64,000 bases of DNA. Source: Candidatus Eiseniibacteriota bacterium (GTDB lineage: Bacteria > Eisenbacteria > RBG-16-71-46). Below the pieces are notes generated by a model that saw only the letters and a list, made by a program, of their open reading frames with translations, made no database searches and had not been told where the DNA came from. Below are positions 58,130 to 61,191 of this stretch, piece by piece (the stretch's first letter is position 1; each line of letters starts with the position of its first letter). The translations under genes and the position numbers were made by a program. The stretch covers positions 448,001-512,000 of the forward strand of contig CAVQXP010000004.1 in the NCBI GenBank assembly GCA_963717935.1, written 5' to 3'.

Positions 58130-58364
58130 CGTAAAGGGGGTGCGCCGGGTCGGACTCTATCGGAGCGCTTCCGGCTCCCGCAACGGAGCCGGGGTGGCGG
58201 CCCCGCCAGGACGGCGCGGGGGCCCGCCGGGCCCGTGGCCTTCGGGGCGCCCCGGGCCACGGACACGACGACACCTTGACCTTCGCGCCCCCGGCTTCTG
58301 ATACTCTCGGGGTCGATCTGCCCCGCCTTCGTGACCTTTGCCGCCCTGCCGAAAGGAAGAGAGC

Positions 58365-59597
58365 ATGTTCCGGACGCCGCCCACCTTCGTGATCCTCTGG
58401 CTCGCCGCCCTGACGCTCGTGCTCGCGGCCGCCGCTCCGTGCACGGCTGCGGACCCGTCCGGTGAGTTGCTCCTGAATCCCGGCTTCGAGGACTCGCTCG
58501 AGACCCACCCCTGGATGCCCTCGGCCTGGGACACGTCCCAGACCGCCCTGCCCACGGTGTTCTTCGGGCGCGACACGCTCCTCGCGCACGGCGGCCGTTA
58601 CGCGGTGAGCGTCGCGAACACCAGCACGCTCGTGCCCACCTGGCACAACTGGAGCCAGACCGTCCTCGTGGGCCCGGAGTCGTGGGGAAAGGACCTGGTC
58701 TTCTCGATGTGGACGCGGAGCAACGGCCTCCAGGGTCGCGCCTACATCCTGCTGCAAGCCTACCGTGACACCATCGGCAAGATGACGAAGATCCTGGGCA
58801 TCCCGCGCGACCTCGCCGGAAGGCGCATCGGCATCAACAAGCTGGACGACCCCCTGCTCGACCTGGGCTGGAAGCGCGTCTACTTCAGCGAGCCCGAGAC
58901 CGACTGGGTGCGGCGCGAGGCGCGCGTGTTCGTGCCGCCCAGCACGAACGTGATCTACGCCCGCTGCGGACTGGTGGGCACGGGCCAGGTCATCTTCGAC
59001 GACGCCTCGCTCAGGCTGGAGACCGCGCGCCCCACCCCCCCCCCACCGTTGCACACGAACCTCCTCGTGGACCCCGGCTTCGAGGGTGACGGCAACGACT
59101 GGGAGTACTCCATGCCGCCGTACTCCGGCCTGCGCATCGACCGTGACACCACTCAGGCGCACTCCGGCAAGGCCTGCATCCGCTACACGGCCAGCAAGCA
59201 GGGCTACATCCAGGCCCGCGTGGGCGCCTGCCAGGTGTTGGGCCGGGGCCTCGCGGGCAACCGGGTGCGCCTTTCGGCCTGGGTGAAGACGGACAGCCTG
59301 ACGGGCTCGATGACCTACACGCGGCTCTACTGCAACAGCCTGAGCCGCGGGCTGGTCCAGAGCGAACCCGGGCAGAGCCTGAGTCTCACGAACGACTGGT
59401 CGCCGGTCTCCTTCGAGATGGACCTGCCGCCGGACGCAGTCGAGATCTGGGCGTGGTTCGCGTACAACGTGCCCGCGACGGGCACGGTCTACTACGACGA
59501 CGTCTCGCTGGAGGTGCTGGGCCCGGCGAGCACGGCGGCCCGGCCGGCAGTGGAGAAGCCCGCCGCGCCCACCGCGAAGAAGAAGCCCGCCCGCTGA
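58365..59597 (+). CDS. Secreted protein with two CBM4/9-like modules
   Basis: Signal peptide; LLLNPGFE..W..AHGG..GQVIFDD and LLVDPGFE..W..AHSG..GTVYYDD; TTGACC-18-GATACT promoter at 58276-58305. Confidence 0.75.
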   Translation: MFRTPPTFVILWLAALTLVLAAAAPCTAADPSGELLLNPGFEDSLETHPWMPSAWDTSQTALPTVFFGRDTLLAHGGRYAVSVANTSTLVPTWHNWSQTVLVGPESWGKDLVFSMWTRSNGLQGRAYILLQAYRDTIGKMTKILGIPRDLAGRRIGINKLDDPLLDLGWKRVYFSEPETDWVRREARVFVPPSTNVIYARCGLVGTGQVIFDDASLRLETARPTPPPPLHTNLLVDPGFEGDGNDWEYSMPPYSGLRIDRDTTQAHSGKACIRYTASKQGYIQARVGACQVLGRGLAGNRVRLSAWVKTDSLTGSMTYTRLYCNSLSRGLVQSEPGQSLSLTNDWSPVSFEMDLPPDAVEIWAWFAYNVPATGTVYYDDVSLEVLGPASTAARPAVEKPAAPTAKKKPAR

Positions 59598-59664
59598 CGC
59601 CGGGGGCCGGGTCGCGCGTCGGAGCACGGCGCGCGCCCCGGCCGGGCCTGCGCATCCGCACGCA

Positions 59665-59694
59665 TTGACAACTGCCGGACCCGCGGCACACACT
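59665..59694 (+). promoter_or_regulatory. Sigma70-type promoter of candidate large ncRNA
   Basis: Consensus TTGACA, 18 bp, CACACT; no credible CDS downstream. Confidence 0.55.
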
Positions 59695-59699
59695 TCTGG

Positions 59700-60155
59700 T
59701 GCAGCCGGGCAGAAAGGCCTCCTTGGCAGGGAGCTTTCCGACCCGACCCGGGGTCGCGTTCGCTGCGCGCGACCCGTCGTACGCTCGAACTCGCGGAATC
59801 TACAAGAGCGAGGTGGTCCGCAGGGAGAGCGGTGCGGCCAAGCGGGGCGGGGGCTGCGCGACGCACGAAGCGCCCGCCCTGGCGATTCCCTCTCGTGTGG
59901 TCAGGAGCGTCCCCCCCCTCCTCACGACGCGCCTGGCAGCGGGGTTCCGCAGCGCAGGATTCATCGCGCGCACGCCGCGGGAGGCGCGCTTCGGTCGCGC
60001 TCCCGGACCCGCCAGCCACATCCAGCGCTCCCGCCCCGGGAACCCCCGCGTCACGCGGTCGTCACCGACAGCAGCAGCCACGCGAAGACGGCCGGATGCG
60101 CGTGAAGCCAGCGAAACCCGGGGGAAGACCCACTCCCTGACGAGCGGCCGTACGG
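59700..60155 (+). ncRNA. Candidate large structured ncRNA (~450 nt), family unknown
   Basis: Series of nested helices, cUUCGg tetraloop and long-range pairings between convergent genes. Confidence 0.45.
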
Positions 60156-60174
60156 CCGGCGCGCCGGCATCGGA

Positions 60175-61095
60175 TCATGCGCGCGGCCCTTCGCCGCGCG
60201 CCAGCAGGAACGCCTGGCGGCAGGTCGCAAGGTGGATCTGGACGGTGTCGTCGAGGCGCCGCGCGTAGCCGCCGCCCAGCGTCACCGCCACGGGCACGCC
60301 GCGGCGCGCGCAGCCCTCCAGCACCATGCGGTCGCGCGCCTCCAGGCCTTCGAGCGTCAGCCCGAGCCCGCCCAGTTGGTCCTCGCGGTACGTGTCTGCC
60401 CCGGCCTGGTAGATCACCACCTCGGGCGCGGCGTCCCAGACCCGCTCGAGCGCCCGCTCGAGTTGCTCCAGATACTCGGCGTCGCCGGTCCCGTCCTCGA
60501 GACCCACATCGAGGTCGCCCGGTTCCTTCGGCATGGGGTAGTTCCGCTGCTGGTGGAGCGAGAGCGTGAAGACCGTGTCGTCGCCGCGGAACGCGCGCGC
60601 CGTGCCATTGCCCTGGTGCACGTCGCAGTCCACGACCGCGGCCCGCCGCACGCGGCCCTCGTGCTGCAGAGTGCGAATGGCGACGGCGATGTCGTTCAGG
60701 TAGCAGAAGCCCTCGGCGTGGTCGGGGTAGGCGTGGTGGAACCCCCCGCCCAGGTTGACTCCGAAGTTGCGCGCCAGGGCCTCGCGCGCCGCGAGCGTGG
60801 TGCCCCCTGCGGCCAGGCGATAGGCGCGCACGATGTCGTCGGTCAGCGGCAGTTCGGAGCTCATGGTGCGCAGGGTCCAGCGCAATTGCTCGAGGTCATC
60901 CACGTACTCGGCCGTGTGGACCCGCAGCAGGTCCTCGCGCGAGGCTGGCCCGGGCTCGAGGAAGGCGTCCCCGGCGACGTCACCCGCGTCCACCAGACGC
61001 TGTCGCAACAGCCCGTACTTCTCCATCGGGAAGACGTGGGCCCCGATGTCGCAGTGGTACCCGGGCGAGTGGACGACGGCGGCTTCTCGGACCAT
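60175..61095 (-). CDS. Histone deacetylase family protein
   Basis: HVFPMEKY, GGGFHHA, GFC, DCDVHQGNGT, QAGAD, GGGY. Confidence 0.93.
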   Translation of the reverse strand: MVREAAVVHSPGYHCDIGAHVFPMEKYGLLRQRLVDAGDVAGDAFLEPGPASREDLLRVHTAEYVDDLEQLRWTLRTMSSELPLTDDIVRAYRLAAGGTTLAAREALARNFGVNLGGGFHHAYPDHAEGFCYLNDIAVAIRTLQHEGRVRRAAVVDCDVHQGNGTARAFRGDDTVFTLSLHQQRNYPMPKEPGDLDVGLEDGTGDAEYLEQLERALERVWDAAPEVVIYQAGADTYREDQLGGLGLTLEGLEARDRMVLEGCARRGVPVAVTLGGGYARRLDDTVQIHLATCRQAFLLARGEGPRA

Positions 61096-61191
61096 GAGAC
61101 GCATCGTGCCATGCGGCTCCGCGCGGCGCAAAGGCGGCTCGCGCGGCGCCTGTGTCGGCAGGCGCGGCTCGGTTACAATCTCCTTCCTGCC

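Follow-up and report, generated by a model that had tools for sequence, protein, structure and literature searches.

A candidate new family of structured non-coding RNA, about 230 nucleotides long, from two bacterial families of the phylum Eisenbacteria

The stretch of DNA analysed here, called the window, comprises 64,000 nucleotides (nt) of a Candidatus Eiseniibacteriota bacterium genome (GenBank assembly GCA_963717935.1, contig CAVQXP010000004.1, positions 448,001 to 512,000 of the forward strand) and has a G+C content of 71.7%. The Eisenbacteria are an uncultured phylum known from assembled genomes only. Within the window, two convergent genes, one for a protein of 419 amino acids (aa) and one of the histone deacetylase family, enclose an intergenic gap of 577 base pairs (bp) at positions 59598-60174. 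An initial annotation, made from this single sequence, had described a gap of about 580 bp with a TTGACA-18-CACACT promoter, no credible open reading frame and an unclassified structured RNA of about 450 nt. The gap is as described, the promoter words are present at 59665-59694 and are conserved upstream of the RNA, and the RNA itself stands, on the plus strand and with a promoter of its own; its length does not, since the RNA takes up no more than the 5' half of the proposed element, about 230 nt. We read positions 59699 to about 59935 of the plus strand as a stand-alone gene for a structured non-coding RNA of a new family, and give this reading a probability of roughly 0.85. The features of the locus are collected in Table 1.

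Table 1. Features of the RNA locus and its flanks, in window positions; helices are numbered P1 to P7 from the 5' end.
Feature	Positions	Strand	Evidence or remark
Predicted -35 box TTGACA	59665-59670	+	TTGACN ahead of the RNA in 76/76 distinct loci
Predicted -10 box CACACT (nAnAnT type)	59689-59694	+	18-nt spacer from TTGACA
Covariance-model match, conserved RNA (model positions 1-227)	59699-59927	+	190.4 bits; sole match in the window's genome
5' domain, closed by P1 and enclosing P2, P3, P4 and P5	59701-59857	+	Covariation
P1	59701-59706 with 59852-59857	+	4/6 pairs vary on both sides; 98.9% paired
P2 hairpin, near-invariant loop UUGGCAG at 59723-59729	59712-59738	+	11 pairs, 5 varying on both sides; 97.6% paired
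P3	59747-59750 with 59843-59846	+	Model helix
P4 hairpin, near-invariant loop UUCGCUGC at 59759-59766	59751-59775	+	9/9 pairs vary on both sides; 97.2% paired
P5 arm	59776-59838	+	P5a and P5b
P5a	59776-59782 with 59832-59838	+	Base: 3 pairs, all covarying
P5b, closing a loop with invariant GAGCGAGG at 59806-59813	59793-59797 with 59817-59821	+	Partner-permutation test
3' domain, P6 enclosing P7	59863-59898	+	Covariation
P6	59863-59868 with 59893-59898	+	6/6 pairs vary on both sides
P7, loop GCCC at 59876-59879	59869-59874 with 59881-59886	+	5/6 pairs vary on both sides
P7/P6 junction UUCCCUCU	59886-59893	+	Near-invariant UUCCCUC
Terminal hairpin, C-rich tract CCCCCCCCUCCUC at 59911-59923 in the loop	59902-59909 with 59928-59935	+	Permutation test
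Unconserved spacer, including a UUCG-capped stem at 59979-60004	59936-60015		Aligns with the nearest relative (L002) only
Evident fossil of the 3' end of corA (Mg2+/Co2+ transporter)	60016-60125	-	Frameshifted
Upstream neighbour, gene for the 419-aa protein	58338-59597	+	No Pfam family above cut-off
Downstream convergent neighbour, histone-deacetylase-family gene (309 aa)	60175-61104	-	PF00850, E 1.9e-61

Comparing the gap by blastn with 40 related genomes gave a match in 23 of the 24 other genomes of the same bacterial family. The core common to these matches lies at query positions 83-336, about 59680-59933 of the window, and positions 59700-59771 retain 80-88% identity between genera. In the alignment of the 23 loci, a conserved TTGACA and a conserved nAnAnT box are followed by a block of about 230 nt with evident compensatory changes, and the similarity fades 3' of the C-rich tract. 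A pattern of three motifs scanned across the GTDB species genomes hit 62 loci, which nhmmer resolved into 51 full-length homologues and 11 chance matches. The record titles of the homologues mostly read 'Candidatus Eisenbacteria bacterium'. Four full-length homologues, L025, L029, L044 and L059, are filed under the titles Methylomirabilota, Limnocylindria, Acidiferrales and Verrucomicrobiia; L023, placed in the window's family, and L029 are identical, so at least the title of L029 looks mislabelled. At least 120 contigs from metagenomes also contain the motif pattern; of 80 such loci among the matches listed, 75 match the covariance model described below over its full length. A collection of viral contigs contained no match to the pattern.

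We built a covariance model, R1, of 227 positions and 47 base pairs on 62 distinct sequences and ran it on 151 genomes of the phylum. Besides the window's own genome, it matched 55 of the 59 genomes of the window's family (f1) and, with 70-88 bits, five of the six genomes of a sister family (f3), or four of five without the unpublished genome G026. None of the three genomes of a further family, f2, was matched, and the remaining 82 genomes of the phylum gave no convincing match and a single marginal one (E 0.008, 21.7 bits). The f1 genomes without a match (G058, G081, G107 and G153) are drafts of 80-96% completeness, so that absence of the RNA from them is not shown. The RNA is kept across at least 33 genera and, as far as the genomes were searched, its family appears confined to two bacterial families of one Eisenbacteria order. 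Each positive genome contains one match, except G133 with two. Two copies in one assembly were seen at loci L080 and L082, which belong to one metagenome-assembled genome. Both copies of the duplicated RNA carry an extra 15-20 nt ahead of the terminal hairpin, and the double copies could be due to duplication, strain mixture or contamination.

The proposed secondary structure is carried by covariation. RNAalifold predicted 47 pairs, 33 of them with compensatory changes. Among 76 distinct sequences aligned to the model, 94.9% of the cells are paired, compared with 81.6% in column shuffles and with 41-53% when the 3' partner is slid by one to three columns. In this set 36 of the 47 pairs vary on both sides and the compensatory cells number 538 versus 158 in the shuffles; none of 500 shuffles equals any observed measure. 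The 68 distinct metagenome sequences, which played no part in building the model, behave in the same way: 96.2% of the cells are paired (84.2% in shuffles, 39-48% when slid by one to three columns), 33 of the 47 pairs change on both sides, 403 cells are compensatory versus 121 after shuffling, and again 0 of 500 shuffles reach any of the measures. Covariation, the check proposed along with the initial annotation, is therefore strong in both sets. G-U cells outnumber A-C cells by 323 to 38 (8.5-fold), which indicates that the RNA is read from the plus strand.

The consensus fold is a multi-branch junction followed by a smaller 3' domain. Two of the hairpins that had been proposed from the single sequence, 59712-59738 and 59751-59775, are the covarying helices P2 and P4. 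A third, at 59893-59926, shares positions with the terminal C-rich hairpin and with the 3' strand of P6, and a fourth, at 59845-59879, conflicts with the pairing supported by covariation, in which its arms belong to the 3' strands of P3 and P1 and to the loop of P7. P1 contains a clean switch from A-U to G-C in six of the 76 sequences. The longer P5a stem of Table 1 is the best helix for the window sequence alone and was not derived from the whole set. P5b and the terminal hairpin lie outside R1 and were tested by permuting partners among the sequences; for P5b this anchored test was chosen because MAFFT could not align the helix. A P5b stem of at least 4 bp can be formed in 71 of 74 sequences, and one of at least 5 bp in 58 of 74, compared with a mean of 26.9 and a maximum of 38 with permuted partners, and 58 different stems occur. 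The loop closed by P5b, nUUCACGAGCGAGGUGAn, has about 19 nt. In one homologue, L074 (G060:C185:5709-5986), the P5 arm holds an insertion of about 50 nt, giving a match of 278 nt with 121.5 bits, so that P5 tolerates expansion.

Besides the helices, about 40 unpaired nucleotides are near-invariant across both bacterial families. These are GGGCAG following P1, UGGCA in loop 2 (UUGGCAG), CGCUGC in loop 4 (UCGCUGC), GAGCGAGG in loop 5, GCCC in loop 7 and UUCCCUC at the P7/P6 junction. Two of these loops resemble other signals, and both resemblances were rejected. The TGGCAG-N5-TTTC of loop 2 could be taken for a sigma-54 promoter; the GC at -12 is missing and the flanks, judged by eye, covary as an RNA stem. 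The GAGGUGA of loop 5 could be taken for a Shine-Dalgarno sequence; no start codon follows it in the sequences inspected, and GAGG alone is invariant.

The RNA has its own conserved, predicted sigma-70-type promoter. The two boxes are separated by 17 or 18 nt in 72 of the 74 loci scored, and the distance from the end of the -10 box to model position 1 is 4-5 nt in 68 of 74, which would place the transcription start at about 59700-59702. The variants of the -10 box include CAGACT, CACAAT, CACACT and similar words, and the promoter was called on the conservation of the boxes, not on a consensus score. At the other end, a terminal stem of at least 6 bp is found in 52 of 74 sequences, compared with a mean of 33.1 and a maximum of 44 in permutations. 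In most relatives the 3' stem has 6-9 bp with a G-rich and a C-rich arm, a loop of five C and a short tail containing U. In the window's genus, the entire C tract falls within the loop of the stem. This hairpin probably marks the 3' end of the RNA and is a plausible terminator.

The RNA locus is evidently non-coding. No reading frame on either strand is free of stop codons in more than 33 of the 76 sequences, the column entropy has no signal of period three, and of the 486 runs of insertions or deletions relative to the window's copy, 448 have lengths not divisible by three. In the best phase the third-position GC is 0.80-0.84, compared with 0.92-0.98 in the flanking genes. Protein-like conservation, which would have counted against the RNA, is absent from every frame, including the one at 59699-60268.

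The statement that the RNA belongs to no known family likewise holds against Rfam 15 (4227 models): none of the models reached its gathering score anywhere in the window. Between 59500 and 60300, a search up to E 10 returned noise only (HepC_CRE at 12.1 bits, in the promoter region on the minus strand), and the loci of 12 relatives returned two noise hits, both outside the RNA. The standard large RNAs share with the Eisenbacteria RNA a single copy per genome, their own promoter and conservation across a clade, and all of them were found elsewhere in the window's genome above the Rfam cut-offs: 6S RNA (RF00013, G000:C1:22376-22597, 68.8 bits), the small signal recognition particle (SRP) RNA (RF00169, C4:1233146-1233245, 60.5 bits), RNase P RNA (RF00010, C4:1930677-1931095, 262.9 bits) and transfer-messenger RNA (tmRNA; RF00023, C4:921511-921870, 161.7 bits). 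An identity with RNase P RNA, tmRNA or SRP RNA was rejected, as none of their models matches at this locus. A 6S identity was rejected as well: the 6S model does not match here, and the fold is a multi-branch junction and not rod-like with a central bubble.

One public RNA run (X1) included part of this sequence (word share 0.07). Its contig of 449 nt, with a mean word depth of 103, carries a relative's copy of positions 59712-59933 with 17 differences and joins 59933 directly to 60148, into the 3' end of the deacetylase gene, so a relative exists that does not have this 214-nt stretch. The coverage is absent on 59300-59707 and 59980-60115 and gives no evidence either way for these parts.

Several points weigh against the reading as a stand-alone RNA gene. 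Transcription is suggested by the X1 contig and not proven, as a relative's assembled contig reveals neither strand nor ends nor level, and the library may have contained DNA. A scan for consensus promoters and terminators over 59400-60400 gave no site; the promoter goes unscored there because its -10 box matches TATAAT at three of six positions only. The U tail is weak, with at least three U within 8 nt in 22 of 73 sequences, and the long C run is missing in four members of the sister family that retain the whole core. The pair counts come from alignments fitted to the model, a bias in favour of the structure, and the sequences are kin, so that the shuffle counts overstate significance. Compared with dinucleotide shuffles, the RNA alone has no added folding stability (z = -0.04). 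The whole gap gave z = -0.19 on the plus strand and +0.73 on the minus strand, and we set thermodynamic stability aside as uninformative in DNA so rich in G+C; the case rests on covariation, as the predicted stability is no better than that of shuffled sequence. Finally, the tertiary contacts and the binding-partner mechanism considered next have no direct support, and the divergent member L131 varies in both GGGC and GCCC in a non-compensatory way.

As a mechanism, we propose that the RNA would be transcribed from its sigma-70-type promoter TTGACA-18-CACACT, would fold into the 5' multi-helix junction, with P1 closing P2, P3, P4 and the long P5 arm, then into the P6/P7 domain, and would end at the G-rich/C-rich hairpin. 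Two tertiary contacts are plausible and might lock the domains together. The complementary words are UCGCU of loop 4 and AGCGA of loop 5 in one, and the GGGC that follows P1 and the GCCC of loop 7 in the other. Covariation cannot probe them because both sides are invariant, and the rare variants at these sites (L136, L138, L130, L019 and L131) are one-sided or non-compensatory. Covarying helices combined with invariant unpaired nucleotides form a pattern that is typical of RNAs with compact folds and atypical of simple antisense RNAs, and from this pattern we infer partner binding or catalysis. The chances seem to us about even that the RNA adopts a compact tertiary fold and acts in trans on a conserved protein or a small ligand through its invariant loops. 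That it is a ribozyme appears very doubtful. Within the window's family, the C-rich loop at the 3' end may give the RNA a further surface that base-pairs with G-rich sequences of the Shine-Dalgarno kind.

This C-rich loop could also be the point of the molecule. The RNA would then be an ordinary base-pairing small RNA (sRNA), in which CCCCCCCCUCCUC serves as an anti-Shine-Dalgarno-like seed that blocks the ribosome binding sites of messenger RNAs and the rest is scaffold. Across the window's family the terminal hairpin does retain the C tract, in its loop or its 3' arm, even where the stem differs, and C-rich seed loops are a feature of the 6C RNA of Actinobacteria, RsaE and the CcsR/cuckoo RNAs. 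With these the Eisenbacteria RNA shares a C run including CCUCC, a hairpin loop near the 3' end and a host of high G+C content. However, the C-rich-loop sRNAs are short and have at least two C-loop hairpins, whereas here one C-rich hairpin stands behind a conserved fold of 200 nt. The sister-family members that keep the whole core without the long C run argue against a seed as the main function and, together with the lack of an Rfam match, against membership of this group. Moreover, a seed leaves unexplained why conservation is highest in the loops of the 5' domain of 170 nt. We therefore consider this role unlikely as the whole account; base pairing by the C-rich loop is possibly an additional function, specific to the family.

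The surroundings suggest another alternative. In most relatives the RNA is followed next by the stop codon of corA, which is convergent with it, and the next gene is convergent in 20 of the 23 family loci, with CorA in 13 and the histone deacetylase (Hist_deacetyl) directly in seven (in this tally L002 was not run through Pfam, and L017 and L023 are undetermined). In the sister family, all four loci fetched have the RNA convergent with CorA (two) or the deacetylase (two). The CorA proteins found at this place in relatives belong to PF01544, with E down to 1e-68. The RNA might thus be a conditional terminator and antisense regulator, whose 5' fold senses, for example, Mg2+ or a metabolite and sets whether transcription stops at the terminal hairpin; otherwise, read-through into the convergent corA or deacetylase gene would lower their expression. 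The tail-to-tail arrangement fits this, as do the short distance of 14-50 nt between the end of the RNA and the corA open frame in six loci (L007, L011, L021, L022, L116 and L127) and the order of the parts, with a hairpin behind an aptamer-like domain. The G-rich 5' arm could pair with the junction CCCUCU in competition with the C-rich 3' arm.

On the other side, the RNA is intact at seven loci that lost corA (the window, L003, L009, L010, L013, L016 and L020), and at three (L097, L110 and L120) the convergent corA or deacetylase gene is replaced by a same-strand gene for a POT/PTR2 peptide transporter, which lies immediately behind the RNA. The alignment, inspected by eye only, has no covariation for an alternative pairing, and neighbours common to kin may reflect inheritance only. 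Regulation by antisense read-through is accordingly quite improbable in our view. The M-box and other riboswitches are alike in having a conserved junction-type fold, here one with invariant loops, and then a hairpin, and the ancestral neighbour is a gene for a Mg2+ transporter. However, riboswitches sit in the 5' leader of a gene on the same strand, whereas here the neighbour is convergent and neither a Mg2+ nor any other riboswitch family matches; in contrast to the M-box, the Eisenbacteria RNA persists after the loss of corA. A combined reading, in which a new class of compact functional RNA (a sensor or ribozyme) has an ancestral tail-to-tail coupling to corA that is functional and a signal such as Mg2+ or a metabolite sets the antisense reach into corA or the deacetylase gene, is a distinctly long shot. 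If true, it would be riboswitch-type control by convergent transcription instead of through a 5' leader.

The single multidomain RNA of about 450 nt (59665-60160) of the initial annotation, closed by long-range pairing of 59782 with 60141 and of 59821 with 60133, is highly improbable. Its complementary words do exist, and the minimum-energy fold of the single sequence pairs distant parts of the gap. However, conservation stops at about 59930 except in the nearest relative, the model match stops at 59927, and beyond about 59936 the gap aligns with the nearest relative only. Much of what follows is evidently a fossil of corA on the opposite strand, to judge from residual similarity to the CorA C-terminus, the frameshift and the lost GMN motif. 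On the minus strand, positions 60057-60122 read PGFRWLHAHPAVFAWLLLSVTT, which is identical at 15 of 22 positions to the C-terminal membrane helix of CorA from a locus of the same genus (L004), and the terminal RRRWM of CorA survives as RERWM at 60019-60033 in a different frame. The fossil represents about the last 40 codons; nothing is left of the GMN motif or of the sequence upstream of it. The gene is intact at this place in the 13 CorA loci of the family and was lost in the window's genome and its nearest relatives.

Positions 59936-60160 are thus, on present evidence, not part of the RNA, and the relative's contig of X1 lacks the whole 3' half. The nested arms between 59939 and 60049 run from the unconserved spacer into the fossil, the hairpin at 60079-60104 lies inside or next to it, and the UUCG-capped stem, once a proposed domain of the RNA, sits in the spacer. 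The 3' partners of both long-range matches fall in or next to the fossil as well, and complementary 7-mers are at chance level in 59665-60160, with 25 compared with 20.3 +/- 6.5 after shuffling. Given this number and the uninformative energies, hairpins and closing helices drawn from one sequence are expected by chance at 72% G+C. The GC-rich UUCG-capped stem (59977-60006) is shared with the nearest relative only and may be the leftover terminator of the lost corA. The weakest alternative, that no RNA exists and that the region holds a small protein gene (for example the frame at 59699-60268) or DNA-level regulatory sites, has open frames of 93-189 aa and a mildly raised third-position GC in one phase in its favour and is hardly tenable, as there is no conserved open frame and no period of three, indels come mostly not in threes, paired columns covary, and the tolerance of G-U over A-C is predicted by neither DNA sites nor codons.

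Returning to the stand-alone structured RNA of about 230 nt, the closest known RNAs by kind, not by homology, are the complex-folded orphan RNAs of the raiA type and the C-rich-loop sRNAs of the 6C type. The raiA motif, OLE, ROOL, GOLLD and HEARO are alike in being stand-alone genes with their own promoter and a terminal hairpin, in their length of about 200 nt or more, in many covarying helices with invariant nucleotides in loops and junctions, and in their restriction to one lineage. They differ in host phylum, helix layout and motifs, and no Rfam 15 match to them was found here at E up to 10. With its length, the Eisenbacteria RNA stands at the small end of this group. A full-text search of the literature found no paper linking Eisenbacteria with non-coding or structured RNA.

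At least eight covarying helices and the near-invariant unpaired nucleotides, maintained over this range of genera, point to a role that is specific in both sequence and shape. RNAs of this complexity have often proved to be ribozymes, sensors or parts of ribonucleoproteins. The model R1 allows the RNA to be annotated in metagenomes. The locus also illustrates that spotting hairpins in a single sequence is unreliable at 72% G+C, where half of the proposed structure turned out to be a gene fossil.

The upstream neighbour is conserved along with the RNA. A same-strand gene of 398-496 aa precedes the RNA in all 23 family loci and ends 60-130 nt upstream of it, and in 14 of 14 further family loci the upstream gene is a homologue of the window's 419-aa protein with 47-59% identity. 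By clade, the protein is found in 58 of 59 f1 genomes, in all six f3 genomes (G026 included), in none of the three f2 genomes and in two of the 82 others, both marginal, which is the distribution of the RNA. One common ancestor would explain this shared distribution. In the sister family the protein and the RNA lie on different contigs, and a functional partnership of the two was not counted as support. The tail-to-tail link of the RNA with the deacetylase-corA pair predates the link to the upstream gene, as the sister family keeps the former with the 419-aa protein on other contigs. The 419-aa protein appears to be clade-specific and without a Pfam family; among its 14 homologues, one has a sub-threshold match to CBM_4_9.

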